NCBI GenBank assembly: GCA_014859065.1
Contig: JACUUU010000001.1
Location: forward strand, 1 to 52,613
Origin: Anaerolineales bacterium
GTDB lineage: Bacteria; Chloroflexota; Anaerolineae; Anaerolineales; UBA4823
Direction of reading: 5' to 3'
DNA length: 52,613 nt
Shown here: piece by piece, positions 21,186 through 50,408 of the stretch
How the letters are laid out: the number at the start of each line of letters is the position of its first letter
How positions within the stretch are numbered: position 1 is the stretch's first letter
Position numbers and translations under genes: made by a program
Notes under the pieces: generated by a model
The model's input: the letters and a program-made list of their open reading frames with translations, nothing else
Told to the model about the DNA's origin: nothing
The model's database searches: none

Positions 21186-21298
21186 AATGAATTGCTGAGG
21201 CACATATGACTGGCAAATTGCCACTCATATACCAAGCAAAGTCTTGACCTTGGAGGCGGAGGTTATCTGTTGAGTTCAAACCTGACTGGAGTAACACT

Positions 21299-27742: not shown

Positions 27743-28576
27743 ATGCCGGAGCTTCCAGAGGTTGAAACGATAGCAGCAAGGTTGCGGAAAGGGGGGCGGA
27801 ACCATGCATCCACACCGCCGCTGTTAGGGAAACGAATCATATCTGCTCAAGTCTTCTGGGAACGTACCCTAGCTGAGCCTACTCTGGAAAAGTTCAAGCA
27901 AAAAATTTCGGGGCAGCTTATCCGTGAAATCAGCCGCAGAGGCAAGTTTTTGCTCATGGATGTGTCTGGAGAGACCTTACTGATTCACTTACGTATGAGT
28001 GGCGACTTATTGGTAGAGACTGACGATAAACTTTTATCTACCTATTACCGAATGGTGTTATCTTTTGAAGATGGGATTCGTCTGGCACTCAATGACCCAC
28101 GTAAGTTCGCGCGTGTATGGTTGACAGCAAACCCTGATGCGTTGCTAAGCCACCTTGGACCCGAACCTTTAGCAGCGGATTTCGCCCCAGATTTGTTTTA
28201 CAGGCGATTAGTGGCACGCCGACGCCAGCTTAAACCACTGCTCATGGATCAGAGTTTCCTGGCTGGTTTAGGAAATATTTACACCGATGAAGCGCTGCAC
28301 CAAGCTGGATTACACCCTCAACGCATATCAACAAGCTTAGATATCCGCGATGCTGAACGCCTCTGGATGAGCATCCGGCATGTTCTTAAAGAAGGTATCC
28401 GCCGTAATGGGGCGTCAATCGATTGGGTGTATCGAGGAGGTGACTTCCAAAATTATTTTCGTGTTTATCAACGCAATGGTGAGCCGTGCCCTGTGTGCGA
28501 TACTCCCATTCAACGCATCACAGTCGGGCAACGTGGGACACATTTCTGCCCCCAATGCCAAAGGTTGGAGGAATAA
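27743..28576 (+). CDS. mutM: Formamidopyrimidine-DNA glycosylase
   Basis: N-terminal MPELPEVE, H2TH region LMDQSFLAGLGNIYTDEALH, and C-terminal zinc finger CPVCDTPI...GTHFCPQCQ. Confidence 0.95.
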   Translation: MPELPEVETIAARLRKGGRNHASTPPLLGKRIISAQVFWERTLAEPTLEKFKQKISGQLIREISRRGKFLLMDVSGETLLIHLRMSGDLLVETDDKLLSTYYRMVLSFEDGIRLALNDPRKFARVWLTANPDALLSHLGPEPLAADFAPDLFYRRLVARRRQLKPLLMDQSFLAGLGNIYTDEALHQAGLHPQRISTSLDIRDAERLWMSIRHVLKEGIRRNGASIDWVYRGGDFQNYFRVYQRNGEPCPVCDTPIQRITVGQRGTHFCPQCQRLEE

Positions 28577-29398: not shown

Positions 29399-32300
29399 TC
29401 AGCGTTTCCGCCGGCGACGCTTAGATTTGCTGGGCTTTTTCTCTCTTACTTTTTCCGCTACTGGTTGAGGTTCAGCTGTCTTCTCGGGTTCGGCTGCAAC
29501 GGAAGCCTGGATTGAGGTTATGTTGCGTGGTTGAAAAGTGAACATGCGGGTGACAACACCTAAACGCATGTTGCTCAATAGTTCTTGGAACATTTCGAAG
29601 GCGCGATTTTTGTATTGAACCAATGGATCACGCTGACCGTAAGCTTCCAGACCAATAGACACGCGGAGTGCTTCCATACTGGTGAGATACTCTACCCACA
29701 ATTCTGAAATTACTCCTAATAAGAGTTGGCGGTAAACTTCAGTCAAAGCCTGGCGTCCCAATTCATCGGAAACGGCGACCCTTATTTCGCCTTCCAGGGA
29801 TTGGAGCGGCTGGTCTTGAACCTCTTTATAGCGGTTTTCCCCAAGTGTTCTAGCTAAACCTTTTCTGGCGGTCTCATTCAGGTCGATGGGCCGATAATTT
29901 GCCAAACGATCCCATTCGCTCTGACCCCAGGCATGCAACATAGCAGATTGAGCTGTTTCAAGGTGGCGCAGCACTTCAGCAGAGATTTCATCAGGATCGC
30001 GATTCTCCAGAAAACGAGCGGACATATAGATATAAGTCAGTCTGGTCGTTCGTCGCCATACCCGGCGGTGGGTGCGCTTATCGAATACCGCTCGTGCTCC
30101 TTGCGGCATTTGCATAAGCAGAAAGAGAAGCTGTGATTCGTTCAAAAAACCATCTACTTTTGCGATCTCTGTTTCAAGATCTTTGGCGATCAAGCCACTG
30201 CCGTTCTCTCCGATAAGCTTTTCCCGACGGCGTTGATAAAGATTTTGGATGGCTGCCAACACCTGGTCGGCCAAGGTGTCCCAATCCTCACTTTCTAGTT
30301 GGGCAGGGTTCAAGCCAAGTTCTTCTTCCAATCGGCGTTCAACTGCACCTACCAGCCTTGTAATTGATTGTTCGATTAATGCATCCTCAACTTGCTGTTG
30401 GACGATGTCGATTGCCTGCTCCGGGTCAGCCTGGAAGGTTTGCAACTCTTCGGACGAAAGCTTGAGAGGCACATGAACTAAGCTGGAAATCTCATCTGAA
30501 AGCTGGCGAGGCGAGCGGATTTCAGTTTCATCTTCCAGGTCTAGCCCTTCAAAAAATGTATCGATGGTCTCCAATCTCTCTTTTAGAGTGCTTTCAAGCC
30601 TTTGGCGAGTGATTTCGAGCAGGTCATCCACTGTGCGCAGCATGTGTTCTTCTTCTGCTTTCAAGGCATTATCAGCAACTTCAAGTAAAGCTTGAAGTGT
30701 TTCCTGCTTTGCCACCCTTCCATCTGTACGCCCTTCATCACCCTTTTGTAGAGGCAGCTCGGGTATTAATTGTTCCATCAGTAAACGCAATGTATAGGAG
30801 GGGAAGATATTGCTGTTCGTGGAAAGTGGAGGTTGGATTTGGTCTAACCAGGCTAATAATTTCCAAGGTCCTTCAGGGTCTTCGAGAGCATGGGGTATCC
30901 GTCGCTGCACTTCGGTTTTCAACATCTCACGCACATCTTCGTTTAAATCATCTTTTTGAAAGATTCGGTTGCGTTGAGCATAGATCTTTACGCGCTGAGT
31001 GTTTAGCACATCATCATATTCTAAGAGGTGTTTACGGACATCAAAATTGGCACCTTCTACGCGGGATTGGGATTGTTCGACGATTCTTCCTACCAAGCCA
31101 ATTTCCAGAGGCAGAGCGTCATCGATCTTTAAACGCTGCATTAAGTTATCTGCTTGCTGTCCACCAAATAAACGCATCAATTCGTCTTCCATGGACAGGT
31201 AGAAACGGGATGAGCCAGGGTCACCTTGCCGGGCGGCACGACCACGCAGCTGGTTATCAATCCGCCTGGATTCATGACGTTCCGAACCAACGACATGTAA
31301 ACCACCTAACTTGCGCACCTGTTCCATATCTTCCATATACTGCAAGAAGTACTTGACCTCGCTCTCGTAAATCCCATAATCTTCCGGGTTCATGTTGAGT
31401 AAGGCATCCCGGCGTTCTTCCATGGTCATATCGAATGGATCGATATCTTGACCTGATTTACGTAAAACCCGGCTGATGGCAGTGATTACTTCCTCAGCCA
31501 TTTCACCGCCCAATTTAATATCAACCCCACGACCGGCCATATTGGTAGCGATGGTAACAGCTCCAAAAGCGCCAGCACCGGCGATGATTTGGCTTTCTTC
31601 GGTATGTTTGCGAGCGTTGAGAACTTCGTGAGGGATACCTGCCTGTAAGACTTTAATCAACCGCTCCCTGTCATCTTCTGTCAAGTTCAAGATGGACAAG
31701 AGCCGTTCTATGTTTTCAGGAGCTTCGGGGTTAAAGGGGAGATCAAGCTCACGAGCCATCTTGCGCATATCTGGAAGGGGAAGTTGTTCCAAAGGTTTGT
31801 TTAGAAAAGCTAATTCTTGGATAACCCTTCCGTCTTCCGTATAATGATTCTTTTGAATCCAAGCATGCCTGAGCAACAGCACCTGAAGCAAACGTCGTAA
31901 AGGTTCTGAGCGCAAGCGGTTGGAGACACGCTCAGAAAGTTCCACCGAGGTGGTGCCTACCAGGATTGGCCTTCCAATTACATGATATTCGATAATCTCT
32001 TCAGCGATGGCGCGCAGCTTAGCTTCTTCTGTGCGGTAAATCATGTCTGGAAAATCTTTCCGCTTCCAGAAGAGTGGTTTGCGATCAGGATTGTCCTTCA
32101 AGGTGTAATAAAAATATTTATAACCATTTTCGTCGCGGTCTTCGATTTCGATCAAGTCAGTATCAGCCCGCGAGGCTATGTATTCCAAGTTGGTGGGGAT
32201 CGCCACCACATCTAACTTGTAGATCTTATCGAACTCTTCCGCTTCCGTCAAAGCTGTACCGGTCATGCCAGCCAGTTTTTCGTACATCCGGAAGTAGTTC

Positions 32301-33562
32301 TGGATAGTGATTGTGGCGTAGGTGACATTCTCACGCTGTACTTTGGCGCCTTCTTTAGCCTCAACTGCCTGGTGGAGACCATCTGACCAGCGACGACCGG
32401 GCATCAAACGTCCGGTGAACTCGTCGATGATAACGACTTTTCCTGCCTGCACCAGGTAGTCTTTGTTACGTTTAAAGAGGAATTGGGCACGTAAAGCTTG
32501 TTCCAGATAGCCCAAGATGCGCGCTTGTTCGGGTGTAATATCTTCAGGGCGTTCTGGGTCGCGAAGAGCCATGGAAAGCAAGCGTTCTACATGACTTTCA
32601 CCCAACTCTGTCAGCGACACAGTCCGGTCGCGCTCATTGATCTCAAAATCTTCCGAATTTAGATTTTTTACTACCTGAGCCATGCGAATGTACCATTCAG
32701 TATCATCCTGGGCTGGTCCGGAAATAATCAAAGGAGTGCGCGCCTCATCGATTAGGACATTGTCAACCTCATCTACAATGGCAAAATAATGACCGCGCTG
32801 AACACGATCTTCAAGACGCATCGCCATATTATCGCGTAAATAATCAAAGCCAAACTCACTGTTTGTGCCATAGGTGATATCGGCTGTATAAGATTCTTTG
32901 CGATCTTCCATGCGGAGGAAGTGTTGGTCCTCATGGGGAGATTCGCGTTCGAAGTCCACCAGAAATGCTTTGCGTCCGTTTTCGGTACGGGAAGCCATCT
33001 GTAAGACACCTACACTTAAGCCTAGCAGGTGGTAAATTGGAGCCATCCAACGAGCATCACGACGAGCGAGATAATCGTTCACGGTGATCAGGTGTGTACC
33101 TCGTCCGACTGGTAAGCCATTTAGAGGTTCAAACTTCCAACTTTGGGGGTCTTCTCCCCATTTTCCCCGAGCGAGTTTTATCCACTCGGGGTTCAAGGAT
33201 AATGCGTTAAGATACATCGGCAGCGTAGCGACTAAGGTCTTACCTTCGCCAGTGCGCATCTCAGCAATCTTACCCTCGTGTAAGCCAATACCGCCGATTA
33301 ATTGCACGTCATAATGCCTTTGTCCCAGCGTGCGTTTACTCGCCTCGCGGACTGCCGCGAACGCTTCGGGCAGGACGTCGTCCAATGTTTCTCCTTGAGC
33401 TAAGCGAAGACGCAACTCAATGGTAGTAGCGCGTAACTGCTCTTCGCTGTAAGCTTCAAACTGCTGCTCAAGGGAATTAATCAGATCTACTGTTTGTGAG
33501 TAATTTTCTATTTGACGTTTGTTGGGGTCACCCCCAATGACTTTTACAATTTTCTGAAGCAT
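29399..33562 (-). CDS. secA: Preprotein translocase ATPase SecA, unusually long (1387 aa)
   Basis: RHYDVQLIGG, MRTGEGKTLV, TVNDYLARRD, DEVDNVLIDEARTPLIISG, TNMAGRGVDIKLGG and ESRRIDNQLRGRAARQGDPG. There are several insertions and a basic Cys-free C-terminus (KSKRRRRKR). Confidence 0.95.
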   Translation of the reverse strand: MLQKIVKVIGGDPNKRQIENYSQTVDLINSLEQQFEAYSEEQLRATTIELRLRLAQGETLDDVLPEAFAAVREASKRTLGQRHYDVQLIGGIGLHEGKIAEMRTGEGKTLVATLPMYLNALSLNPEWIKLARGKWGEDPQSWKFEPLNGLPVGRGTHLITVNDYLARRDARWMAPIYHLLGLSVGVLQMASRTENGRKAFLVDFERESPHEDQHFLRMEDRKESYTADITYGTNSEFGFDYLRDNMAMRLEDRVQRGHYFAIVDEVDNVLIDEARTPLIISGPAQDDTEWYIRMAQVVKNLNSEDFEINERDRTVSLTELGESHVERLLSMALRDPERPEDITPEQARILGYLEQALRAQFLFKRNKDYLVQAGKVVIIDEFTGRLMPGRRWSDGLHQAVEAKEGAKVQRENVTYATITIQNYFRMYEKLAGMTGTALTEAEEFDKIYKLDVVAIPTNLEYIASRADTDLIEIEDRDENGYKYFYYTLKDNPDRKPLFWKRKDFPDMIYRTEEAKLRAIAEEIIEYHVIGRPILVGTTSVELSERVSNRLRSEPLRRLLQVLLLRHAWIQKNHYTEDGRVIQELAFLNKPLEQLPLPDMRKMARELDLPFNPEAPENIERLLSILNLTEDDRERLIKVLQAGIPHEVLNARKHTEESQIIAGAGAFGAVTIATNMAGRGVDIKLGGEMAEEVITAISRVLRKSGQDIDPFDMTMEERRDALLNMNPEDYGIYESEVKYFLQYMEDMEQVRKLGGLHVVGSERHESRRIDNQLRGRAARQGDPGSSRFYLSMEDELMRLFGGQQADNLMQRLKIDDALPLEIGLVGRIVEQSQSRVEGANFDVRKHLLEYDDVLNTQRVKIYAQRNRIFQKDDLNEDVREMLKTEVQRRIPHALEDPEGPWKLLAWLDQIQPPLSTNSNIFPSYTLRLLMEQLIPELPLQKGDEGRTDGRVAKQETLQALLEVADNALKAEEEHMLRTVDDLLEITRQRLESTLKERLETIDTFFEGLDLEDETEIRSPRQLSDEISSLVHVPLKLSSEELQTFQADPEQAIDIVQQQVEDALIEQSITRLVGAVERRLEEELGLNPAQLESEDWDTLADQVLAAIQNLYQRRREKLIGENGSGLIAKDLETEIAKVDGFLNESQLLFLLMQMPQGARAVFDKRTHRRVWRRTTRLTYIYMSARFLENRDPDEISAEVLRHLETAQSAMLHAWGQSEWDRLANYRPIDLNETARKGLARTLGENRYKEVQDQPLQSLEGEIRVAVSDELGRQALTEVYRQLLLGVISELWVEYLTSMEALRVSIGLEAYGQRDPLVQYKNRAFEMFQELLSNMRLGVVTRMFTFQPRNITSIQASVAAEPEKTAEPQPVAEKVREKKPSKSKRRRRKR

Positions 33563-37603: not shown

Positions 37604-39742
37604 GTGCGAATGGATTCTTTCTCTTTAACTAGCAACCAGCTAAAGCTTGTCGAGATGCCCTTGAATGAAAAGGTCTTCCTGGAGGGACCTGCGGGTACCG
37701 GGAAGACGACAGCAGCAGTCCACAATCTGGAGCGTATGGTTATTAAGGGCGTTGACAGTGGTTCAATCTTGATACTCTTGCCGCAGCGCACCCTGGCAGC
37801 TCCGTATACCCGCACCCTGGCTAAGATGGGGTTCCCAGATGGAGGTGTCGCCGGCATCATGACTTTAGCAGGGCTGGCGCGCAGGATGGTTGACCTCTTC
37901 TGGCCGTTAGTGGTGGAGGAGGCTGGTTTTGAAAGACCTGACAAAGCACCAGTTTTTCTGAACATGGAAACCGCCCAATACTTCATGGCACGTGTTGTCA
38001 GACCACTGTTCAGCCGGGGTTTTTTCGAATCGGTGACAATCCACCGAAATCGGCTCTACAGCCAAATACTTGATAATCTCAACAAGTCGGCTGTGGTTGG
38101 ATTTCCATACACCACGATTGCTGCTCGATTAAAGAGTGCCTGGAAAGGGGAACCTGGTCAGGCGCGTGTTTACGATGATGCTCAAGAATGTGCTGTCCTA
38201 TTTCGTCGTTATTGCCTTGAGCACAATCTCCTTGATTTCTCTCTTCAGATTGAGGTGTTTGCCAAGCACATTTGGACGAACCAACTTTGCAGGGCGTATT
38301 TATGCACTCGATACAAACATTTATTCTTCGATAACCTGGAAGAAGACACCCCCATAACGCATGATCTCATCAGGGAGTGGTTACCCCAATTTGAGTCTGC
38401 ACTGTTGATCTTCGACCAAGATGGAGGTTACCGGCGTTTTCTAGGAGCTGATCCTGTGACCGGAAAAACCCTCAAGGATGTGTGTGGGAATAAAATGGTT
38501 TTCACAAACTCATTTACCAATCCCCCGGAATTAGAGGCGACGGCAACCCATTTTGGTCGAGTTATGAACTATCCGGTTAAGACACAAAGCGCGGACAGTC
38601 GCGCAGATAGTTTTATTAAGGGGAGGAAAACTAAATCACCTCTTGTGGTGCAATTTAACCGATATTACCCGCAAATGCTTGATTGGGTTGCCGAGACGAT
38701 CTCGCACCTGATTCACAACCAAAAGATCAGTCCAGGTGAAATTGTAGTATTAGCTCCGTATCTATCCGACTCCTTACGGTTCTCGTTGATCGAAAGATTA
38801 CATCGTTTCGAGATCCCGGCAATTTCTCACCGACCATCACGACCATTGAGGGAAGAACCTGCTGCCCAATGTTTGTTGACTTTGGCTACATTAGCTCATC
38901 CTGAATGGGAAATAAGACCCAGTAAGTATGAGGTCGTTTATGCGTTGGTAGAAGCTGTCGCGGGGATGGATCTCGTTCGAGCACAGCTCCTGACAGAGAT
39001 TGTCTATCGAACACGTGTAGGGCAACCTGTGATGACACCTTTCTCGAGCATCAAGGCAGACTTTCAAGAGCGGATTACCTATACTCTAGGTGAGAGGTTC
39101 GACCATTTACGAAATTGGATTGAAGATTACCGGCAAGATCCACTGAATGAACTGGATCACTTTTTCAGTCGATTATTTGGAGAGGTCCTATCACAACCAG
39201 GGTATGGCTTTCACTTCGATTATCGGTCCGGTAGAATTGCTGCAAACCTGATCGAGTCGGCAAGAAAATTTCGCCAGGTAATGAGTGAGGTTGAATTCAA
39301 TTCAGGCAAATCTATCAGCCAGGAATACATCGAGATGGTTTATGAAGGGGTTGTAGCAGCTCAATATATCGGCAGCTGGGATAGCCGACCAGGTGACGCT
39401 GTATTTCTGTCTCCAGCATATACGTTTCTTATGAGCAACAGACCAGTAGAATTTCAATTCTGGCTCGATATAGGTTCGACAGGATGGTTTGAACGCCTTT
39501 ACCAACCACTTACTCATCCTTATGTGCTAAGCCGTCATTGGAAAGATGGAACACCTTGGAATGATTCAGATGAACTCCAGGCGGCTCATCAGTCACTGAC
39601 TCTGCTTATCTTGGGCTTGATACGGCGCTGCCGTAATAAGATTTACCTGGCAACCAGTGAGTTAGGAGAACAAGGGTATGAGCAGAAAGGGAATTTATTG
39701 AGAATCGTTCATCAGGTATCTCGGCAAATTCAAAATGGGTAG
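37604..39742 (+). CDS. AddB/RexB-like SF1 helicase-like protein lacking a nuclease domain
   Basis: Walker A LEGPAGTGKTT. AddB-like Walker-B region LFFDNLEEDTPITHDLI. Divergent C-terminal half (IRRCRNKIYLATSE). No PD-(D/E)XK motif. The ORF opens at GTG 37604; ATG 37610 is an alternative start. Confidence 0.65.
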   Translation: MRMDSFSLTSNQLKLVEMPLNEKVFLEGPAGTGKTTAAVHNLERMVIKGVDSGSILILLPQRTLAAPYTRTLAKMGFPDGGVAGIMTLAGLARRMVDLFWPLVVEEAGFERPDKAPVFLNMETAQYFMARVVRPLFSRGFFESVTIHRNRLYSQILDNLNKSAVVGFPYTTIAARLKSAWKGEPGQARVYDDAQECAVLFRRYCLEHNLLDFSLQIEVFAKHIWTNQLCRAYLCTRYKHLFFDNLEEDTPITHDLIREWLPQFESALLIFDQDGGYRRFLGADPVTGKTLKDVCGNKMVFTNSFTNPPELEATATHFGRVMNYPVKTQSADSRADSFIKGRKTKSPLVVQFNRYYPQMLDWVAETISHLIHNQKISPGEIVVLAPYLSDSLRFSLIERLHRFEIPAISHRPSRPLREEPAAQCLLTLATLAHPEWEIRPSKYEVVYALVEAVAGMDLVRAQLLTEIVYRTRVGQPVMTPFSSIKADFQERITYTLGERFDHLRNWIEDYRQDPLNELDHFFSRLFGEVLSQPGYGFHFDYRSGRIAANLIESARKFRQVMSEVEFNSGKSISQEYIEMVYEGVVAAQYIGSWDSRPGDAVFLSPAYTFLMSNRPVEFQFWLDIGSTGWFERLYQPLTHPYVLSRHWKDGTPWNDSDELQAAHQSLTLLILGLIRRCRNKIYLATSELGEQGYEQKGNLLRIVHQVSRQIQNG

Positions 39743-39903
39743 AATGAAAATATTCTTCGGCTGCGATGGGGTTGGTTTTGAAGATCTGCAAGTGACTTTC
39801 CCCAAGATCAAGAATTGTGCTGGAGGAAAAATTCGCCTGCCTGGAAGCTTTGGCATTTTGACACAAGCGCGCTGCAGCCGGATTAATTTAATTGGTGGAG
39901 ATC

Positions 39904-42144
39904 ATGTTCCAACCACGCCCTAAGCAAGAAGAAGTTTTGAGTTACCGGAGAGGCAAGATGGGCGTAGCTGCTGTTCCGGGGAGCGGCAAAACACATACCT
40001 TATCCTATTTGGCAGCTAATATTATCCTTCGCGAGGAGCTGGAGGAGGATCAGGAAGTCTTAATCGTCACGCTGGTGAACTCAGCCGTGGACAACTTTGC
40101 CGGTCGGATTTCTGGCTTCCTGCATGAAAATGAGATCTTCGCTTACCCGGGATTTGGTTACTGCGTGCGAACGCTGCACGGTTTATCTCATGATATCGTG
40201 AGGGAACGACCTTCTTTGGTTGGCTTGGCGGATAATTTCCAAATAATCGATGAACAAACCGCAAACCAGATCCGCAGTGAGGCTGCCAGGGCATGGCTGC
40301 ATGCCAATATTGGGGTATTGGATGAATATTTCAGATCGGATCTGGATGAAAGGCAACGTGAGCTCGTTCGCCGTAAAGATCTGCTCGAGTTAGTCACGGG
40401 CATCGCCAACAGTGTTATCCGATCCGCTAAGGATCAGCAGATCACTCCGGAGAAATTACGCCTGCAATTAGATGGCTTGCCGCTGCCTCTCCGCTTGGCT
40501 GAAATGAGCTGTGAAATTTATTCAGACTACCAACGCGGCTTGAACTATAGAGGCGCAGTTGATTTTGATGATCTTACCAGGTTGGCGTTACAAGCTTTAA
40601 AATCAGATGAAGAATACCTGCAGCGCTTGCGCCATCGTTGGCATTATATCCTGGAGGATGAGGCGCAGGACAGCAGCCGTCTCCAGGAAGAGATCTTAGA
40701 GTTATTGGTCGGGGAGAATGGGAATTGGGTGCGTGTTGGTGATCCCAATCAAGCCATTTATGAGACCTTTACGACTGCAAATCCAGAATATTTACGGAGT
40801 TTTCTGAAGCGAGATGACGTATATGCAAGAGAATTGCCTAACTCTGGTCGTTCTACTCTCAGCATCATTTCACTGGCTAACCAGTTGATCCACTGGACAC
40901 AACATGAACACCCAAACGAAAATGTTCGTAACGCTCTAGCGCCACCTGAAATTGCCCCCACTCCCCATGGAGATCCCCAACCAAATCCGGAAGATAATCC
41001 TGCTGCTATAAGGTTTATCCCCAACAAATTCACCTCCCAGGAAGAGGTGCGAGCAGTGGCGGATTCTGTAGCTCGTTGGCTGCCTAAACATAACCAAGAA
41101 ACAGTTGCTATGCTGGTGCCTCGTAATCAAAGGGGCTTCGAAGTAGCTAAGGAATTGGGTAGAAGAAACATTGATTACGTAGAAAACTTACAGAGTTCAT
41201 CGACTACAAGGGCCACCGCAGGTGCTCTGGGTAATATAGTCAATTATCTGGCTGAGCCTCAATCCGCTAAAAAGCTGGCAACAGTTTATCGAGTTTGGCA
41301 AAGGGAAAATATCGAACAAAAAGGGCATACATCCAGGATTGCCGCATTGATAAGCTCCTGCAATCATGTTGAGAGCTTTATTTGGCCAAAAGTCAACCGT
41401 GATTGGCTGGATGAGGTAGAAACCCAACCAGAAGAAGGAGAATTTTTAGAAAAGTTGCGGGATTTTCGCCAGGTAGTCCAGAGGTGGCAGGGTTTGGTGC
41501 TGCTGCCCATCGATCAGGTAATCCTGACCCTTGCGCAAGACTTATTTGAGGATTTAACCCAGCTGGCTATCGCCCATAAGATAGCCCTGGTATTGCGGCG
41601 GGCGAGTGACTTGAACCCTGATTGGCGCTTGCCCCAGCTGGCTGGAGAACTGGCATTGGTGGCGAAAAATGAACGCAGATTCATCGGTTTTAGTGAGGAT
41701 GACCGATCATTTGATCCGGAAAATTATCGCGGTCGCGTTTATGTGACTACAATTCACAAAGCTAAAGGCTTGGAATGGGACCGCGTTTATCTGATGTCTA
41801 TCAACAACTACGATTTCCCCTCTGCAATCCAAGGTGACAAGTATATATCTGAGAAGTGGTTCCTGCGTGATGCGCTCAATCTCGAAGCTGAAGCGCTCGC
41901 TCAACTTAGAGCTGCATTTTCGAAGGATGAGTATAGCTGGTATCAAAAGGGAGAAGCGACACACAGCGCCCGTTTAGATTACGCTGCTGAACGATTGCGC
42001 CTGCTCTTTGTAGGCATTACCCGTGCGAAAAAGGAATTAATACTTACCTGGAATACAGGCCGTAATGGTGAATGCCGGGAAGCGCAGCCATTTACCGCAT
42101 TAAAGTACTTTTGGGAAGAATTCATCCATGACCATACCTCCTGA
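39904..42144 (+). CDS. UvrD/PcrA/AddA-type SF1A DNA helicase (no nuclease domain)
   Basis: Motif I AVPGSGKTH, motif II ILEDEAQDS, motif III VGDPNQAIY, motif V TIHKAKGLEW and motif VI LLFVGITRAKKEL. GGTGGAG RBS before ATG 39904. Confidence 0.9.
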   Translation: MFQPRPKQEEVLSYRRGKMGVAAVPGSGKTHTLSYLAANIILREELEEDQEVLIVTLVNSAVDNFAGRISGFLHENEIFAYPGFGYCVRTLHGLSHDIVRERPSLVGLADNFQIIDEQTANQIRSEAARAWLHANIGVLDEYFRSDLDERQRELVRRKDLLELVTGIANSVIRSAKDQQITPEKLRLQLDGLPLPLRLAEMSCEIYSDYQRGLNYRGAVDFDDLTRLALQALKSDEEYLQRLRHRWHYILEDEAQDSSRLQEEILELLVGENGNWVRVGDPNQAIYETFTTANPEYLRSFLKRDDVYARELPNSGRSTLSIISLANQLIHWTQHEHPNENVRNALAPPEIAPTPHGDPQPNPEDNPAAIRFIPNKFTSQEEVRAVADSVARWLPKHNQETVAMLVPRNQRGFEVAKELGRRNIDYVENLQSSSTTRATAGALGNIVNYLAEPQSAKKLATVYRVWQRENIEQKGHTSRIAALISSCNHVESFIWPKVNRDWLDEVETQPEEGEFLEKLRDFRQVVQRWQGLVLLPIDQVILTLAQDLFEDLTQLAIAHKIALVLRRASDLNPDWRLPQLAGELALVAKNERRFIGFSEDDRSFDPENYRGRVYVTTIHKAKGLEWDRVYLMSINNYDFPSAIQGDKYISEKWFLRDALNLEAEALAQLRAAFSKDEYSWYQKGEATHSARLDYAAERLRLLFVGITRAKKELILTWNTGRNGECREAQPFTALKYFWEEFIHDHTS

Positions 42145-43000
42145 TTTTTACTTCAGCCAGGCAAGACTCCAAGACTATGTAGAGTGCCGCCGTCGCTTCC
42201 AACTACGGTATTTGCTTGATATCGCTTGGCCCGCGGTAGAGGCTGAACCGGTAATTGAGAACGAAAGCCACTTGCAGATGGGAGAGCAATTCCATCATCT
42301 TATTCATCAGCATTTGGTTGGTATCAATTCCGAGCAGCTTTCTCGCCTGTCTCAGGGAAAACCTCTCCAAGGTTGGTGGCAAAATTACCTTGACTTTATG
42401 GAAGACCCTTTAATTAAGCCGCGGTTTTCTGGGCTTAATTCCAAATGCTTTGCAGAGATCAGCTTATCATCGACTTTGGGAGGCTACCGACTAATTGGCA
42501 AATTTGATGCCATCGCTGACTTTGAGGACCAGGGTGGTGTTAATGTGAGCATCTACGACTGGAAGACCTCTACCAACCGACCACCACGGGTTTGGTTAGC
42601 AAACCGCTTACAAACTCGAATCTATCCTTATTTGCTGATAAACGCGGGTGCTTCACTTATTCAGAGACAACCTATCCATCCAGATCAGGTAGAAATGATT
42701 TATTGGTTTGCTAATTTCCCTAACGATCCAGAGTATTTTAGTTACACACAATCCCAATTCGATCTAGATCATCGATATCTGACAGCGCTGGTCGATGAAA
42801 TTATACAACTACCTGCGGATGCATATTCATTAGCCTCAAATGACAGGAATTGCCGATTCTGTACCTATCGTTCTTTATGTGACCGCGGGACTAAGGCGGG
42901 GTTGATGGATGAAATCGAATTTGAAGGCTATGAGGAGGATAGAGACCAACCGGTTATCCCAATTCTAGATTTTGAGCAGATTGGTGAAATAGAATTTTAA
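42128..43000 (+). CDS. PD-(D/E)XK nuclease, Cas4/AddB-type with a four-Cys Fe-S cluster signature
   Basis: N-terminal SQARLQDYVECRRRFQLRYL (first Cys). Nuclease core GKFDAIAD...VSIYDWKTS and QTRIYPYLL. C-terminal CRFCTYRSLC. The start overlaps the helicase stop by 17 nt. Confidence 0.85.
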   Translation: MTIPPDFYFSQARLQDYVECRRRFQLRYLLDIAWPAVEAEPVIENESHLQMGEQFHHLIHQHLVGINSEQLSRLSQGKPLQGWWQNYLDFMEDPLIKPRFSGLNSKCFAEISLSSTLGGYRLIGKFDAIADFEDQGGVNVSIYDWKTSTNRPPRVWLANRLQTRIYPYLLINAGASLIQRQPIHPDQVEMIYWFANFPNDPEYFSYTQSQFDLDHRYLTALVDEIIQLPADAYSLASNDRNCRFCTYRSLCDRGTKAGLMDEIEFEGYEEDRDQPVIPILDFEQIGEIEF

Positions 43001-43006
43001 GATTCG

Positions 43007-45385
43007 ATGATGAGAAACTGGGTTGAACCTCATAAAGTGACCATACCAGCAGGTCTGGAGAATGAAGTTGGTGGACACCGGCTACTTAGCCAGCTATTGG
43101 TTCAGCGTGGGATCACTGATGTTGATGCAGCCAGGGCTTTTCTTGATTCACAATATTACCGCCCAACACCACCTGGTGAACTGGCGGGAATGGAAAAGGC
43201 AGTTGAACGTATAGAGAAGGCTATCCAAATTGGTGAAATCATTGGGGTGTGGGGAGATTTTGATGTCGATGGGCAGACTGCGACAGCGTTGTTGGTATCA
43301 GCTTTAAGAGGGTTGGGTGGTAAAGTCGAATATCACATTCCAATCCGAGAACGTGAATCACATGGCATAAACCTTCCGAGACTGAAACCTTTTTTAGATG
43401 GAGGTGTCGGATTACTAATAACCTGTGATACCGGAATTTCAGAGCACGAAGCGGTTAATTGTGCAAGTAAACGAGGGGTGGATGTGGTGATTACTGACCA
43501 CCATGAACTGCCCCCCAGATTGCCAAAGGCTTATGCTATCCTGAACCCAAAGTTGTTGCCTTCAAGCAGCCCACTTGCCAACCTTCCTGGGGTTGGTGTC
43601 GCATTCAAATTGGTTGAAGCTCTGTACCAAAACGCCGGACATGCAGGAGTGGTCGATTCCTATCTTGACCTGGTGGCTTTAGGTATCGTCGCTGATGTGG
43701 CTATCCAAGTTGGCGATACTCGCTATCTGCTTCAACGCGGCTTAGACGTTTTGAGGGATAATCAACGAGTTGGCCTACAAGTCATGATGGAATTGGCGGA
43801 TCTTCAGTCAGCCTCGCTATCTGAGGAACATATCGGTTTTGTGATAGCCCCGAGGCTGAACTCGCTTGGTCGATTGGCAGATGCCAATCCAGCTGTTGAA
43901 TTCCTGATAACTCAGGATATAAACAAAGCCAAAAAGTTGGGAGAGGAGTTGGAGTCATTAAATGCCAGGCGAAGGTTACTGACTGACCAGGTTTTCCAGG
44001 CTGCACAAACACAGATCGAAAAGGAGCCTACACTTTTATCTCAGGCTGCGTTGGTGCTGTCACACCAGACCTGGCCAGCTGGGGTGATAGGGATCGTCGC
44101 TGGTCGTCTGGCTGAACGCTATCAAAAACCAGCAGTCCTAATATCTGAACCACCAAGTGAATTAACACGTGGTTCGGCAAGATCGGTAGAGGGTTGTGAT
44201 ATATTCGAGGCGATCTCCTCTTGCCGCGAATTGTTGACAGGTTTTGGGGGCCACAGCATGGCTGCTGGTTTCTCTTTGGAGGCGGAACTAATCCCTGATT
44301 TCAGGCGGGCGTTGTCTGCAGTAGTTCAAAGCATGCTGGGGGAAGTCATATCTCCACCGAAACTGATTATCGATGGTTATTATGAACTGGGAGATTTAGC
44401 ATTTGAGTTTGTGAAGGAACTTGAACGTCTATCACCATTTGGTCCGGGAAATCCTGCCCCCATCCTGGTGAGCACGGGGTTAACCGTGAAGCAATTTAAC
44501 CCGATTGGAAGAAATTACGAGCATCTCAGGGTACTGGTTGAAGATAAGTACGGGCAGGTAAACAAGGTCATTTGGTGGAACGGGGCGGGATGGAAGTCTC
44601 GCGATCCTCTGGAAAACAGTGAGCCTTTCGACCTGGCTTATGTCGTGCGAACCAGCGATTATCGCGGGCAAAGCGATATTCAGATCGAATGGGTGGATAT
44701 CCGCCCGGCTGAAACCGCCCAGATTGAAGTGAATGGCGACCAACTCCTGATGGAGGTTCATGACTTCCGAGGTGAACCTGACCCCCTCGACCGTTTGAAA
44801 GGCTTGCTTGAGGAGAATGAACCCCAGATCTGGTGTGAGGGACTAGACCGACGCATGTTGGCTAACTTGGGTATCAAATCTTCCGATCGAGAGGAATTGA
44901 CCAAATCTAACAATCTGGTAATCTGGACTACACCTGCGGGGCGGAATGAGCTGATGGCTGCAATTGACAAAGTCTCTCCATCAGTGATTTCCTTGATTGC
45001 TGTGGAACCGCAAAACACTCAAGTTGAACCTTTCCTCAGATACCTGGCTGGTTTGTGCAAGTATGCCATTAACCACACCCAGGGTAAGGTCAAAGTAGCG
45101 TTGCTGGCAGCGGCTACCTCCCAATCTAAAGCGACTGTGAGGTTGGGCATATCCTGGTTAGAGAAAAGTGGTTTTCTTGCAGTGATGAACGAAGAAGCTG
45201 GTGAGCTTTCATTGGCGAAGGGAAAACAAACAGCTGTTGACGAACATACATATCTGCTTGATCAGCTCAAGGAATTGTTGGCAGAGACTGCCGCTTATCG
45301 AGCCTTCTTTTCTACAGCTGATGTTGACAGCTTACTTCCAACAACAAAGAACCCCACCAACCAGTTGAGGGGGGCAACCGGCTGA
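43007..45385 (+). CDS. recJ: Single-stranded-DNA-specific exonuclease RecJ with a C-terminal extension
   Basis: DHH motifs VWGDFDVDGQTA, ITCDTG and VVITDHH. DHHA1 motif GGHSMAAG. 792 aa. The start lies 6 nt after the nuclease stop. Confidence 0.9.
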   Translation: MMRNWVEPHKVTIPAGLENEVGGHRLLSQLLVQRGITDVDAARAFLDSQYYRPTPPGELAGMEKAVERIEKAIQIGEIIGVWGDFDVDGQTATALLVSALRGLGGKVEYHIPIRERESHGINLPRLKPFLDGGVGLLITCDTGISEHEAVNCASKRGVDVVITDHHELPPRLPKAYAILNPKLLPSSSPLANLPGVGVAFKLVEALYQNAGHAGVVDSYLDLVALGIVADVAIQVGDTRYLLQRGLDVLRDNQRVGLQVMMELADLQSASLSEEHIGFVIAPRLNSLGRLADANPAVEFLITQDINKAKKLGEELESLNARRRLLTDQVFQAAQTQIEKEPTLLSQAALVLSHQTWPAGVIGIVAGRLAERYQKPAVLISEPPSELTRGSARSVEGCDIFEAISSCRELLTGFGGHSMAAGFSLEAELIPDFRRALSAVVQSMLGEVISPPKLIIDGYYELGDLAFEFVKELERLSPFGPGNPAPILVSTGLTVKQFNPIGRNYEHLRVLVEDKYGQVNKVIWWNGAGWKSRDPLENSEPFDLAYVVRTSDYRGQSDIQIEWVDIRPAETAQIEVNGDQLLMEVHDFRGEPDPLDRLKGLLEENEPQIWCEGLDRRMLANLGIKSSDREELTKSNNLVIWTTPAGRNELMAAIDKVSPSVISLIAVEPQNTQVEPFLRYLAGLCKYAINHTQGKVKVALLAAATSQSKATVRLGISWLEKSGFLAVMNEEAGELSLAKGKQTAVDEHTYLLDQLKELLAETAAYRAFFSTADVDSLLPTTKNPTNQLRGATG

Positions 45386-45464
45386 TGGGGTTGCTGAGAT
45401 TATGCCATAGATTAGCAAATTGTGCAAGCTCCAATTGTCCCCCAAATTTTCACATTAGGGGTTG

Positions 45465-45733: not shown

Positions 45734-48223
45734 CTAAATTTTAATCCCAAGAGTGGTGGAGGTCAATAGGTGGGGAAAAAGAGGAGTGTGTGTTTCTCTG
45801 ACCCTGCGTGATCCTTTGGGTTGGGGAGGCAAGACACCCGGCGGGGCGGCATAACCAGCGTTGCTGAAAAGCCACAGGCGTAGGGTTTCTTCGTTCACCC
45901 CAAATGGGCCCAGAACTGTGCTGGCAGCACGCAGCAGCAGCTCAGCATAACGGACGGTGTCAACACTGGCTGGGTCAGGTGAGGTGGGCAAATCCCAGGC
46001 GTGCACGCCTGGATCACCCCGCGTGTAGAGAAAGCGGACGTACTGACCGGGGCTGATGGTTTTGCCGGCTGCCACCAGCTGTGCTACCGCGCGCGCTACA
46101 GGTGAGGGTGTGCGGTATTCATCCAGTACGCGGCTGAGTTTTTGGGTGACCAGCAGGTCCTCCAGGGGGAGGTGACCGGCGCGCAGAGCTGCCAAGCGGC
46201 GGCGCAGCAGCGACAATGCTCTGGGCAGGATAGACGCCTCCTGTTCAGGGGTATGCGCATGTGCCAATTCCTGCAATAACTCCAGCTGGGTGTGAATGAT
46301 GAAGGGCGGGGTATCGTGGCGGCGAGCCTCGATCCCCCGATATTTAAGTGACCCATCCTGGAAAACGCCAAAGTAGCGATTAGCGACCGGCACGCGCTGG
46401 TTAGAACGAGAGGGAAGGAAAGCCACCCAGCGATAAATACCTTCCAGGGCCACCGGCAAGCCAGTGCGGTTCATAATCTCGTCCAGCAGAGGCTGAACAG
46501 CGGAGACGGTCGAGGCGCCGGGTTTGTGCACCCACATACCGTCAACGTACAGGTGCAGCACGGTGAAACCCTGGTCTTCAGCAGCCTCTTTGGCGCGCAG
46601 CAGTGCCTCGCGCCCATAGGCAGTGACCGCCTCGTGAGCTTCGATACGTCCAAAGCGGGCATTCTTATATCCCAGGTAGCCGAAGCAGGTTACCAGCAGC
46701 CATTTGTGGGCTGATGTGCGCGCTTTATAAGCCTTGCGCTTAGGATGCCAGGGAGGCTGGCTGGTCAGGCGCAATTTAAGGGATAGCCGTTTCTCCAGCA
46801 AAGGGGAAAGTGTCTGGGGCACCAAGCCGGGTTGGGCGGGTGGTCCGGGCAAATCCAGCTCTTGCGCAGCCTGGGTGATAGCCTCGGAAGTGCCTACAGT
46901 TTCGGGGGAGATGTTAAAGCGCGCCATGATTCCAGGGTACATGGAGACAAAGTCAATCTCGGCCACGTCGCGGTGTAAGCCAATGATGGGATGGTAAACC
47001 AGGCCGCCCTGATCGGCGTGCAGCAAATCCAGCGCGCTCTTGGGACGTTCAGACTGCTGTTTGTGCCATGGGATCAAAATGCCCTGACGCAGGGCAGTGA
47101 GCATCTGCATGGACGAGATGCCCGTGCCAGGCGAGACCCGAGCGGCGGTTTGCAGCGGCAAGCCGGTGACGCGCGCCATCTCTTGAGCGCCTTCTATACC
47201 GTAGTCGTGAAACAAGATGGCATTGTAGCGGTCGATATGCCAGCGACCGAAGAGGTGAACCTGCCGACCCTGATGGATAATTTGACCGTAAGAAAAATAG
47301 GTATGCTCGCGCCGTTCATCTACACCCCGGTTGGGTTCCCGGTTGAGAGGTAAGGTGATGTGCAAGCGTTGGGCTAATTCAAGCAGGTGTGGCAACAACC
47401 AGGTGTCGCCCCAGGATGTGAGCAGCAAGTCAGGATCGTGCCGGTTCAGGATAGCGCACAGCCCTAGCAAGAGAGGTCGAGTCGGTTGTAGAGACAGGCG
47501 GTAGTCAAAGCGACCACAGCGGATAGTCAGATGTGAGGGTGGTGCGTGCTCTGGGTCACAATTCGGAGCGATGGTTATCACCCGTAAAGGTGGGATGATG
47601 GGGTCCAAGTCCCAGGGGGAGTCGAGTGGGGTAACATTCTCAATGCGGTTGTTTATGCTGGTGGTGAAGCGGCAGTAAGCCAGGGGGAAAACGTGGTGGG
47701 CTGCAGCGTAGCGCAACGCCAGGTGAACGTCAGCATCGTAATAAGTCAAGTCAGGGAATTGATGAGCAGTCTGTTGGAACAGCCGCGGTTGAGCGGCAGG
47801 TTGGTTGACCTGTACAGCCAGCACGGTCAGCGGCTGCTGACAGAAGAGATCGCGGCGTTCTACCCAATCCAGGTTAACGGGAATGGGTTGGTTCTCCAGT
47901 CGCTTTTGCAGGGCGCGCAGACGTGCAGTTGGGCCAGCTGCGTAGAAAGTGACCGGAAAAGGCTGGCACAAGCGGCGGCGGACACCATCCTCACCCAACA
48001 ACCAGAGCACCACCCCGTGCGGGGATGCCATTGAGGGAACGTGCTCTCCTTGATTGGAGCGACTCTGTGAGGCAAACACGTCGAGCACCCAGCCAGTATA
48101 TTCCACCGAAGGCACCTTATCCACCGGATGAATTTTATGCGCCTGATGTGCTTTATCCACCAGAATCAATCTGTGCGCTCTGCTCATCCCCATGCGCGGG
48201 AGGCAATCGATCCACCTGTTCAT
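45734..48223 (-). CDS. Family-B DNA polymerase, Pol-epsilon-like motifs, proofreading site lost
   Basis: Motif A EIDFVSMYPGIM, motif B KWLLVTCFGYLGYKNARF and motif C LHLYVDGMWV. The ExoI position reads VITIAP (no DxE). The start is uncertain (ATG 48223, 48193 or 48187, or GTG 48160), and all candidates overlap the upstream gene. Confidence 0.85.
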   Translation of the reverse strand: MNRWIDCLPRMGMSRAHRLILVDKAHQAHKIHPVDKVPSVEYTGWVLDVFASQSRSNQGEHVPSMASPHGVVLWLLGEDGVRRRLCQPFPVTFYAAGPTARLRALQKRLENQPIPVNLDWVERRDLFCQQPLTVLAVQVNQPAAQPRLFQQTAHQFPDLTYYDADVHLALRYAAAHHVFPLAYCRFTTSINNRIENVTPLDSPWDLDPIIPPLRVITIAPNCDPEHAPPSHLTIRCGRFDYRLSLQPTRPLLLGLCAILNRHDPDLLLTSWGDTWLLPHLLELAQRLHITLPLNREPNRGVDERREHTYFSYGQIIHQGRQVHLFGRWHIDRYNAILFHDYGIEGAQEMARVTGLPLQTAARVSPGTGISSMQMLTALRQGILIPWHKQQSERPKSALDLLHADQGGLVYHPIIGLHRDVAEIDFVSMYPGIMARFNISPETVGTSEAITQAAQELDLPGPPAQPGLVPQTLSPLLEKRLSLKLRLTSQPPWHPKRKAYKARTSAHKWLLVTCFGYLGYKNARFGRIEAHEAVTAYGREALLRAKEAAEDQGFTVLHLYVDGMWVHKPGASTVSAVQPLLDEIMNRTGLPVALEGIYRWVAFLPSRSNQRVPVANRYFGVFQDGSLKYRGIEARRHDTPPFIIHTQLELLQELAHAHTPEQEASILPRALSLLRRRLAALRAGHLPLEDLLVTQKLSRVLDEYRTPSPVARAVAQLVAAGKTISPGQYVRFLYTRGDPGVHAWDLPTSPDPASVDTVRYAELLLRAASTVLGPFGVNEETLRLWLFSNAGYAAPPGVLPPQPKGSRRVRETHTPLFPHLLTSTTLGIKI

Positions 48224-48500: not shown

Positions 48501-49097
48501 TCACAGCAGGCGGGGCTGCGATGGGGGCACATGCGTTTCCAGCGTCCACACCTGACCAGCCGCGGCCTGTAAGGTCTTGAGCAGTTCTGGGCGGTGAGTG
48601 AGCGCTTCTGGTCGGGCGCTGACAGCTACCGGCGCAAGGTGGTTCAGCCGACGCAGTTGGGCAATGCAGGTCTGCAGCAGCTGCAAGCTTTCTCTGGCTG
48701 CCACACTTTCGTCATGGAAGGTGGACAGCAAGTCCAGAACGATGGTTGGGAGTGCTTGGGCTTCCGTCTCTCTCAGCAGGCTTTCCACCTGGTAGCAGGT
48801 GAAGGCGCGTGCCAGCTGGATACGCTCAAGGATAACGGGCAGTTCAGCTGTCTGGTCGCCTAAGGCGCGAGCGATGGCGGTGTTGCAGCGGTAAACGTCA
48901 AAACGGTTGCCGCCATCCAGCAGGAGCAATCGCCCGCGAAGCGCCAGGCGGGCTATGATCTCTATCATGAGCGCGCCGCCAGCATGGGGCGCTATCACTA
49001 AAAAGAAGGGGTGGGTGTGCTCAAGAGCTGTCAGGCTGATCCCATTCCTGGAAACCAGCCTATTTTCAACAGGAGGTGTGTTTGAAGGTATGTTCAC
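48501..49097 (-). CDS. Hypothetical protein, possible P-loop-less RecA/KaiC/ImuA-like fold
   Basis: The beta-strand/helix pattern resembles RecA-superfamily cores: FFLVIAPHAGGALMIEII sits where a Walker A would be (no GKT/S), and PTIVLDLLSTFHDE is a Walker-B-like strand. GTG start with no obvious RBS. Confidence 0.5.
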   Translation of the reverse strand: MNIPSNTPPVENRLVSRNGISLTALEHTHPFFLVIAPHAGGALMIEIIARLALRGRLLLLDGGNRFDVYRCNTAIARALGDQTAELPVILERIQLARAFTCYQVESLLRETEAQALPTIVLDLLSTFHDESVAARESLQLLQTCIAQLRRLNHLAPVAVSARPEALTHRPELLKTLQAAAGQVWTLETHVPPSQPRLL

Positions 49098-49193: not shown

Positions 49194-50408
49194 TCAGGTC
49201 ACCACTCGCAGGAAACGGCGTTTGCCAGCCTGGAGTATTCCGGGATGTGGGAAGGGTTGATTAGGATCTTTCAGGGTCTCGCCATCCAGGCGCACCCCAT
49301 TCTGGGCAATCAGTCGCCGACCTTCACCGCGACTGCTGATCAGTCCACCCGATTCGAGAACATCCAATACGGTCTGCCCGGGAAGTAAATGATATTCACC
49401 CATTTCTTCGGGCACATCGCCTCGCTGGAAGACCCTCACGAAATTAGACTGGGCTTGGTTAGCTGCTTGATCACCATGGAAGATATCGACGATTTCATAG
49501 GCAAGTTTCATCTTCAAGTCACGCGGGTGCAACAATCCGGCATCCAAATTGTGTTCCAGTTCAGCGATCTCTCCGACAGACCAGCGTGTAACCAGGCGGC
49601 AGTAATCCCCCATCGCCTGGTCTGGGAGGCTCATCACTTTGCCGTACATATCGTCGGGTGAAGCCAGGATGGGGATATGGTTGCCCAGCGACTTGCTCAT
49701 GCGGATAACGCCATCAGTTCCTGGGAGGATACCCATGATGATGGCTATATTGGGTTTCTTGCCCAAGAAGGTCATCAACTTACGGGCGGCAGTGACAATG
49801 TTAAAGAGCTGGTCAGTCCCGCCGACTTGAACATCGGTGTTCAGGGCAAAGGCGTCATAACCCTGCATCAGCGCGTAGAAAGTCTCGTGTAGATAAACGG
49901 CATCTCCTTGCTCAAAGCGCAGTTTGAAATTATCTCGAGTGAGGAACTGCTGGATGGTGAAGTTAGAGGCCATTTTAATCAGATCGGCGAAGTCCAACTG
50001 TGAAAGCCATTCGTGGTTGAAGCGGACAATGGTCTTATTGCGATCCAGGATTTTGAATGCTTGTTCGGCGTAAGTACGAGCGTTATGTTCAACCTCGTCA
50101 AAGGTCAGTTGTGGGCGTAATTGGTCTTGATCTGAAGGGTCACCGATCAAGGATGTGTAAGTACCGATTAAAAAAACGACCTCATGTCCCAGGTCTTGAA
50201 ACTGGCGTAACTTTCTCATTGTGATGGTGTGACCCAGATGCAGGTCGGTGGTGCGGGGGTCGTAACCGCAGTAGACTCGCAGAGAACGGCCTTCTTGGTG
50301 AGCCTCGATTAATCGCTGCCGCAGCTCGTCAGCCATTGCCTGCTGAAGTGTTTCGTCCCCATATTCGGTTCCCTGCATCAGGGTTGTAACTTGTTCGTCG
50401 ATGTTCAT
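49194..50408 (-). CDS. tyrS: Tyrosyl-tRNA synthetase
   Basis: HIGH-type motif DLHLGH, KMSKS-type motif RMSKS, and a C-terminal S4-like domain (GLISSRGEGRRLIAQNGVRLDG). Confidence 0.95.
   Translation of the reverse strand: MNIDEQVTTLMQGTEYGDETLQQAMADELRQRLIEAHQEGRSLRVYCGYDPRTTDLHLGHTITMRKLRQFQDLGHEVVFLIGTYTSLIGDPSDQDQLRPQLTFDEVEHNARTYAEQAFKILDRNKTIVRFNHEWLSQLDFADLIKMASNFTIQQFLTRDNFKLRFEQGDAVYLHETFYALMQGYDAFALNTDVQVGGTDQLFNIVTAARKLMTFLGKKPNIAIIMGILPGTDGVIRMSKSLGNHIPILASPDDMYGKVMSLPDQAMGDYCRLVTRWSVGEIAELEHNLDAGLLHPRDLKMKLAYEIVDIFHGDQAANQAQSNFVRVFQRGDVPEEMGEYHLLPGQTVLDVLESGGLISSRGEGRRLIAQNGVRLDGETLKDPNQPFPHPGILQAGKRRFLRVVT

Follow-up and report, generated by a model that had tools for sequence, protein, structure and literature searches.

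The stretch of DNA analysed here (52,613 nt of contig JACUUU010000001.1, assembly GCA_014859065.1, from an Anaerolineales bacterium of the Chloroflexota; hereafter the window) carries an operon that is conserved within the class Anaerolineae and uncharacterised, and that is most likely an unbundled relative of the AddAB and AdnAB helicase-nucleases. Four genes make it up: g1 encodes a degenerate UvrD-like protein, g2 an intact helicase of superfamily 1A (SF1A), g3 a stand-alone Cas4-family nuclease, and g4 is recJ (Table 1). The reading favoured here, at a probability of about 0.55, is that the products of g1, g2 and g3 constitute one helicase-nuclease of AddAB/AdnAB type, distributed over three polypeptides and acting in DNA-end resection. 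End resection in bacteria is understood through three fused machines, RecBCD, AddAB and AdnAB, as well as through the RecQ/RecJ route. What differs in the present arrangement is the separate nuclease gene, the nuclease-free motor and the recJ gene within the operon; the architecture is otherwise that of AddAB and AdnAB.

The first-pass annotation of this DNA had described four co-directional genes, the last three of them coupled, and both statements hold. The open reading frame (ORF) table reproduces all four genes on the + strand, and reading the junctions directly confirmed that g2 and g3 overlap by 17 nt (g3 ATG at 42128; g2 TGA at 42142–42144) and that 6 nt separate g3 from recJ. The spacing between g1 and g2, also read directly, is 149 nt. 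Judging from the sequence, the true start of g1 is likely to be the ATG at 37610 and that of g2 the ATG at 39904; a GGAG sits 5 nt upstream of the latter. Profile searches likewise upheld the earlier domain calls for g2 (UvrD), g3 (PDDEXK_1) and g4 (RecJ).

Relatives of g1 were sought in one genome per GTDB species, and at least 587 loci were found. The best 80 of these were searched by tblastn with the four window proteins, and 63 are informative, each having at least 6 kb downstream of g1. All 80 belong to the Chloroflexota and nearly all to the Anaerolineae; one g1 locus is labelled Candidatus Aquidulcis, of the class Limnocylindria, likewise Chloroflexota. The four-gene order first noticed in the window is syntenic elsewhere: g1, g2, g3 and recJ follow one another in 45 of the 63 informative loci. 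A further 12 have g1-g2-g3 with no recJ within 10 kb, 5 have g1-g2 only and 1 has g1 alone, so that the order g1-g2-g3 is retained in 57 of 63. These counts identify g1, g2 and g3 as the conserved core and recJ as a frequent (~70%) but optional addition. Thus, the earlier statement that RecJ is built into the unbundled operon is borne out where recJ follows the trio (45 of 57), but not as an obligate feature. No consistent substitute for recJ was seen in the 12 trios without it; the ORFs that follow those trios differ in kind, and many of them run in the opposite direction.

Junctions are mostly shorter than 70 nt across these loci, with a g3-recJ gap of at most 30 nt in 29 of 45, and the flanking genes are wholly different from locus to locus. 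Identities across the class, as given by tblastn, are 52–59% for g1, 53–65% for g2, 37–52% for g3 and 45–60% for RecJ; on these values g1, although apparently inactive, is under no less constraint than the motor g2. Together, the data support g1, g2 and g3 as a conserved functional module.

In the translation of g1, GPAGTGKTT occupies residues 28–36 and FDNLEEDTP residues 242–250. The sole Pfam match is a marginal one to UvrD-helicase (25.9 bits, residues 9–58); no NCBIfam model matched, the AddB models of NCBIfam and Pfam gave no match at E ≤ 0.01, and Pfam detects no nuclease domain in a protein that ends at 712 aa. An alignment of 30 g1-family sequences (52–68% identity) contains ~190 invariant positions. 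Among the invariant residues are those of Walker A (G28, G31, G33, K34 and T35) as well as R675 and R677, while Q12, D243 and R353 are each kept in at least 90% of the sequences. Motif II reads D243-N244-x-E246-E247-D248, with N244 invariant in 30/30 sequences and E246 and E247 invariant too; the motif III Gln is lost. Both HMMER and hhalign align this motif II to VDEFQD of UvrD, a pairing that puts the invariant Asn at the position of the catalytic Glu. The first-pass annotation had called FDNLEEDTP AddB-style. As the motif aligns to that of UvrD, and the AddB motif proper is VDGFYQFTPQE, the likeness (D-x5-TP) is, on these alignments, superficial.

When the profile of the g1 alignment was run against PDB sequences, UvrD was found (E 3e-4) and AddB (3U44_B) was not, even at E ≤ 10. 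With hhalign, the g1 family matched UvrD at 93% probability over 237 columns (residues 9–98 and 170–296 of the UvrD sequence used agree with the PDB chain), whereas the match to residues 1–785 of Bacillus subtilis AddB, a sequence checked beforehand and 100% identical to 3U44_B, reached 60% over 96 columns in the Walker A region only. AddB homology of g1 was rejected on the NCBIfam and Pfam searches, the PDB profile search and the comparison with verified AddB, and by sequence g1 is nearer to UvrD than to AddB. An origin of g1 as a recent paralogue of g2 was also rejected, hhalign giving no significant match between the two. The AlphaFold2 (AF2) model of g1 (predicted local distance difference test, pLDDT, 72; predicted template-modelling score, pTM, 0.69) has the four-subdomain SF1A fold seen in UvrD, AddB and AdnB. 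Foldseek ranks UvrD first (3.5e-19, together with Rep and PcrA), followed by AddB (6.6e-17), AdnB, AddA and RecB; it does not separate UvrD from AddB, AdnB or RecB, all of which have the generic SF1A fold.

The ATP site of AddB retains Walker A, the motif II Asp and the motif IV Arg and has lost catalysis (Saikrishnan et al., PMC3321194). The site in g1 matches that state: Walker A is intact and the Asp of motif II is still there, but the catalytic Glu has gone. Since the ATP-site state matches and the sequence does not, ‘AddB-like’ denotes a functional analogy rather than family membership. The earlier description of an AddB-like 712-aa protein therefore stands as regards the UvrD fold, the type of ATP site and the missing nuclease, but not as regards sequence, for which no AddB model gives a match. 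It is probable that g1 binds ATP but cannot hydrolyse it, and the protein is a candidate for a non-motor scaffold or a DNA-scanning subunit.

The g1 family comprises at least 566 representative clusters (50% identity) below 1e-30 in an exhaustive profile search. Almost all complete sequences among the best 150 representatives are ~700 aa long, and a Pfam scan of the three over-long or offset members in that set revealed no nuclease domain. Rosetta-stone fusions of g1 to a nuclease were considered and rejected, the longer members being gene-call artefacts that include a methyltransferase or FtsX neighbour, or having no Pfam domain. The most distant full-length members bearing a source name are almost all from the Chloroflexota (Caldilineae, Anaerolineaceae); the exception outside that phylum is one truncated 608-aa cluster member, from a metagenome-assembled genome (MAG) labelled Acidimicrobiales.

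In g2, motifs I–VI can all be read from the translation (I, GSGKT; II, DEAQD; III, GDPNQAIY; V, TIHKAKGLE; VI, VGITRAKKEL). Pfam assigns UvrD-helicase (2.2e-44) and UvrD_C (1.3e-22) and finds no nuclease (PDDEXK) domain, the protein ending ~25 residues past motif VI, in agreement with the initial description of a complete UvrD/AddA-type helicase without a nuclease. The NCBIfam rep, pcrA and uvrD models (TIGR01074, TIGR01073 and TIGR01075) score 120–136 bits against cut-offs of 911–1144, and the recB and addA models 63–96 bits (recB 96, addA 82) against cut-offs above 690. As g2 falls far below every equivalog cut-off, it represents a distinct SF1A clade and not an orthologue of UvrD, PcrA or Rep. 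Among PDB sequences UvrD, Rep and PcrA are closest (UvrD 3.6e-21), with AddA at 1.2e-8 and AdnB at 6e-8. Homologues of g2 share 60–76% identity and are all from Chloroflexota. The protein is predicted to be a 3′→5′ motor.

The product of g3 matches PDDEXK_1 at 8.4e-26. Its Cys set consists of C20 and C242-x2-C245-x5-C251, and its catalytic residues are D127, D144-x-K146 and Q162..Y166. An alignment of 30 homologues shows no variation at C20, C242, C245, C251, D127, K146, Q162 or Y166; at least 90% of the sequences have D144, and CxxCx5C is present in 30/30. The stand-alone 290-aa PD-(D/E)XK nuclease with a four-Cys iron-sulphur (Fe-S) signature reported initially is thus confirmed. The AF2 model (pLDDT 78) finds its best Foldseek match in ACE1 (2.5e-7); the AdnA nuclease domain (template-modelling score 0.51–0.56, root mean square deviation 3.9–5.2), Cas4, Exo5, the AddB nuclease domain and Dna2 are also matched. 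These structural neighbours are ‘iron-staple’ nucleases, which thread single-stranded DNA (ssDNA) and have ssDNA or 5′ strands as their substrates. Against the Cas4 equivalog TIGR00372, g3 scores 20.3 bits with a cut-off of 65, and so is not CRISPR-associated Cas4 proper. It does have the features of the wider Cas4 family, namely D...(D/E)xK, QxxxY, four Cys and the Cas4/AddB-nuclease fold, and JGI names its homologues ‘Cas4 (RecB family)’. The protein is an Fe-S ‘iron-staple’ nuclease of the Cas4/AddB/AdnA/Dna2 type. At its C-terminus (window 42890–43000, residues ~255–290) all 30 homologues end in LDFEQI(A/G)EIE(F/Y)-COOH, preceded by an acidic linker that is variable and is modelled with low confidence. 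This terminal peptide looks like a tethering peptide and is reminiscent of the docking motif in the C-terminal tail of single-stranded-DNA-binding protein; RecJ, g1 and g2 are its candidate partners.

The identification of the fourth gene as recJ is secure in that g4 scores 509 bits against TIGR00644 (cut-off 396.9), which makes it a true equivalog, and carries the Pfam domains DHH, DHHA1 and RecJ_OB; the DHH motif can also be read in the translation. On these profiles g4 is RecJ, a 5′→3′ ssDNA exonuclease. Its best PDB match is RecJ 8y30 (2.5e-84), itself 757 aa long, so that the ‘long’ RecJ of the earlier annotation is not unusual. A C-terminal extension of ~225 aa gives no Pfam match; RecJ genes linked to related operons have it too, with tblastn spans of ~2.3 kb.

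If the favoured reading is correct, g2 would be the single active SF1A 3′→5′ motor and would track along the 3′-ended strand, with g1 as its UvrD-fold ATP-binding partner, a scaffold, strand guide or regulatory switch in the role that AddB, RecC or AdnA fills elsewhere. Cleavage of the displaced 5′ strand is the task of the homologous nuclease domains in AddB and AdnA (summarised in PMC12094033), and g3 is likewise predicted to be a 5′-strand ssDNA nuclease. It would act in trans on the displaced strand, possibly tethered through its conserved C-terminal peptide. Processive degradation of the 5′ strand would fall to RecJ, which most species co-translate with g3. As the set contains no 3′-strand nuclease of the RecB/AddA type, the predicted product is a 3′ ssDNA tail formed without Chi-dependent nuclease attenuation, on which RecFOR would then load RecA. 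Such a scheme would entail that the three proteins form a complex, that g1 is ATPase-deficient, that the strands are handled with the polarity given above and that the set serves in double-strand-break or fork repair.

An extension of this reading, tentative and with the odds somewhat against it, is that the Anaerolineae, a large class that is abundant in the environment, may lack canonical AddAB and RecBCD and use instead a three-subunit machine, made up of an ATP-binding pseudo-helicase, a UvrD-type motor and a tethered, trans-acting Fe-S Cas4 nuclease, and wired to RecJ. As such a machine would act on the 5′ strand only, Chi would not be required. It would correspond, in bacteria, to Sgs1-Dna2, and in evolution it could plausibly stand between free UvrD and Cas4 modules and the fused AddAB and AdnAB. 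If the favoured three-protein reading holds, the operon would show how helicase-nuclease machines are assembled from modules and would be a design that is naturally independent of Chi. A function could then be assigned to ‘solo-Cas4’ and to a large ‘hypothetical’ helicase-like family in an abundant, poorly studied phylum, and a defined role to a pseudo-helicase with an ATP site seemingly built to bind, not hydrolyse.

Comparison with AddAB (RexAB; B. subtilis, PDB 3U44/3U4Q) brings out both sides of the analogy. Shared are two UvrD-fold, SF1A-like subunits, of which one is active and one has a crippled ATP site, a RecB-family nuclease of the Fe-S ‘iron-staple’ kind that bears C-x(n)-CxxCx5C, and the placement of the genes in one operon. 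However, the AddB nuclease is a fused C-terminal domain, whereas g3 is a separate protein; the motor here has no nuclease domain, hence the set has no 3′-strand nuclease; and recJ is in the operon. Of the attributes of AddB, g1 has the inactivated UvrD-like N-terminal fold and neither the fused Fe-S nuclease nor a specific sequence relationship, and it has kept more UvrD-like motif remnants. Likewise, g2 is not the motor fused to a 3′-strand nuclease that defines AddA and RecB. With AdnAB (Actinobacteria; PDB 6PPR, 7SJR) the operon shares two UvrD-like subunits with one leading motor (AdnB in AdnAB), and g3 finds one of its best structural matches in the Fe-S nuclease of AdnA, by which the displaced 5′ strand is cut. 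Both Adn subunits have fused nucleases and complete ATPase motifs; the operon, in contrast, encodes one Cas4-type nuclease, unfused, g1 and g2 have no nuclease domains, and in g1 both the catalytic Glu and the Gln of motif III are missing, so that the operon does not belong to AdnAB.

The combination of RecQ or UvrD with RecJ (the RecF pathway of Escherichia coli; UvrD-RecJ of Deinococcus) and that of Sgs1/BLM with Dna2 resemble the operon in joining a 3′→5′ helicase to 5′-strand-only nucleases and in Chi-independent 3′ tails, which are here predicted. They differ in that no degenerate helicase-like partner is encoded together with their components. Dna2 in particular has its own SF1B helicase, the likeness lying in its Fe-S Cas4-like nuclease. 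The literature searches made returned no description of operon coupling between a Cas4-type nuclease and RecJ, and nothing specific on a Chloroflexota helicase-nuclease or a uvrD-cas4-recJ operon. Solo-Cas4 and UvrD-linked Cas4-like nucleases (PMC5704561) and the cyanobacterial ACE1 (PMC12094033) belong to the same nuclease family as g3, and the operon is set apart from those systems by having no CRISPR or Argonaute association. Hudaiberdiev et al. (2017, PMC5704561) report a monophyletic solo-Cas4 in many Chloroflexi, and also operons, chiefly of Clostridiales, in which uvrD and a cas4-like gene are unfused and for which a repair role seems likelier than one in defence. In the text of that paper ‘recj’ occurs 0 times, and in the passages retrieved there is mention neither of a degenerate helicase-like partner nor of a four-gene operon in Chloroflexota.

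Several observations weigh against a three-protein helicase-nuclease. The Asn at the catalytic position of g1 suggests loss of ATPase activity without proving it, and the invariant E246 and E247 might compensate for the missing Glu. No fused forms were seen among the best 150 representatives of the g1 family. The motor g2 could be the organism’s general UvrD/PcrA. The g1-g2 junction is loose, at 149 nt in the window and with inserted genes and gaps of 0.5–2.4 kb in some relatives, which indicates that the g1-g2 link tolerates interruption while the g2-g3 and g3-recJ junctions are usually tight; in L002/L005, for instance, an unrelated gene (12252–13352, e.g. one for a Pyr_redox_2 oxidoreductase) interrupts the pair. 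Additionally, recJ is absent within 10 kb of 12 of the 57 trios. There is also no LexA box of the Gram-positive type (GAAC-N4-GTTC) upstream of g1, the matches in the window being at or below chance, and SOS regulation of the operon was rejected on this ground.

The alternative that survives best is some other housekeeping DNA transaction, such as the handling of forks that have stalled or reversed, the repair of gaps, Dna2-like flap or Okazaki-fragment processing, or mismatch or excision repair, with g1 and g3 as accessory proteins. In mismatch or excision repair, g2 would serve as the general UvrD of the cell and RecJ would be the exonuclease of the excision step. UvrD and RecJ act jointly in mismatch repair and at stalled forks, and the closest relatives of g2 are UvrD, Rep and PcrA, not AddA or RecB. 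The fold of g3 also matches the flap and ssDNA nucleases Dna2, Exo5 and MGME1, and fpg lies in the same window. Such a role is nevertheless unlikely. The end-processing enzymes AddAB and AdnAB have just this architecture as their signature: two UvrD-like subunits, one active and one degenerate, combined with an Fe-S nuclease of the RecB family. Scores of 120–136 bits, where the UvrD, PcrA and Rep cut-offs exceed 900, argue against orthology of g2 with those helicases, and neither mutS/mutL nor uvrABC is linked to the operon in the window.

A role in defence, which the first-pass annotation had offered as its alternative, or in foreign-DNA processing is disfavoured as rather improbable. On this view the helicase and the Cas4-type nuclease, with or without RecJ, would break down linear or plasmid DNA that enters the cell, or make small DNA guides. 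In Synechococcus elongatus, loss of solo-Cas4, UvrD, a RecJ paralogue or Argonaute improves transfer or maintenance of an RSF1010-based plasmid, a plasmid-interference phenotype common to the cas4, uvrD and recJcy mutants (PMC10653904). UvrD-Cas4 fusions are linked to defence and to type III restriction-modification (PMC5704561). The nearest solved fold to g3 is that of ACE1, an Argonaute-associated Cas4 nuclease, although the ACE1 profile match to g3 is weak (E 0.025). PADLOC returned GajB-type UvrD matches and a weak Aga_Cas4-like_Nuc match (E 0.0018), yet these reflect generic UvrD and Cas4 similarity. The signature partners (GajA, reverse transcriptase, Argonaute), restriction-modification genes and cas genes were absent from the flanking ORFs scanned in the window, and cas1/cas2 were not found among the ORFs scanned around the operon. 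Membership of the known defence systems Gabija, DRT and pAgo-ACE was rejected on the generic PADLOC matches and the missing partner genes. A phage or mobile-element origin was likewise discarded, no g1 relatives being found in 2.9 million viral contigs. The more than 580 species loci lie in one phylum, with stable order and varying flanks, which points to a vertically inherited core set and not to a mobile defence island; housekeeping genes typically show the degree of conservation seen across the class, 50–65%. In the favoured reading the module serves a housekeeping function that the Anaerolineae inherit vertically.

Finally, a chance assembly of four independent DNA-metabolism genes held together by operon inertia, with g1 a decaying helicase paralogue, could draw on the loose g1-g2 junction and on the dispensability of recJ in a fifth of the trios, but is very improbable given the strong purifying selection on g1 (its ~190 invariant positions at 52–68% identity) and the persistence of g1-g2-g3 order and spacing across the class despite complete turnover of the flanks.

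The closest database proteins are those of an Anaerolineales MAG (98–99% identity). Core genes are distributed along the window (Table 1), which also carries respiratory and regulatory genes; the context of the operon is housekeeping and not that of a defence island. A hairpin spanning the recJ stop codon is a probable bidirectional terminator, ending the operon against a convergent polB gene.

Table 1. Operon genes, hairpin and core genes of the window (positions in nt)
Feature	Position	Strand	Description	Source
g1	37604-39742	+	712 aa, degenerate UvrD-like (SF1A-fold) protein	ORF table
g2	39892-42144	+	750 aa, intact SF1A UvrD/PcrA/Rep-like helicase	ORF table, profiles
g3	42128-43000	+	290 aa, stand-alone Cas4-family PD-(D/E)XK nuclease	ORF table, profiles
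g4 (recJ)	43007-45385	+	792 aa, RecJ	ORF table, profiles
Hairpin	45350-45392	no strand	18-bp stem, spans recJ stop codon	terminator-like scan
dnaE	71-4081		core gene	
prs	26747-27739		core gene	
fpg	27743-28576		core gene	
secA	29399-33562	-	core gene	
tyrS	49194-50408		core gene	

The polB gene (45734–48223, − strand) encodes a family B DNA polymerase. Its stretch has a GC content of 0.586 against ~0.47 in its neighbours, and its product scores 370 bits against NCBIfam NF004416 (cut-off 516). Given its absence from all 80 related loci, polB may be a strain-specific acquisition. An adjoining 198-aa ORF (48501–49097) has no family match.

Elsewhere in the window, the SecA protein is 1387 aa long, ~450 residues above the usual length. 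Its Pfam domains are split or stretched, with SecA_DEAD in two pieces and P-loop_SecA spanning 315 residues against a 205-position model, which implies large insertions. Two unusual domain fusions adjoin each other at 7917–11426 (− strand): the first (614 aa) combines a cyclic-nucleotide (cNMP)-binding domain, a histidine-kinase ATPase and a CoA-binding domain, and the second (548 aa) a response-regulator receiver, a glutaredoxin and a thioredoxin-reductase-like Pyr_redox_2 domain. Positions 15363–22330 (+ strand) hold a cluster of the type II dimethyl sulfoxide (DMSO)-reductase family, with genes for a molybdopterin oxidoreductase (1159 aa), a 4Fe-4S subunit, a NarJ-like chaperone and a haem subunit of the ethylbenzene-dehydrogenase type.

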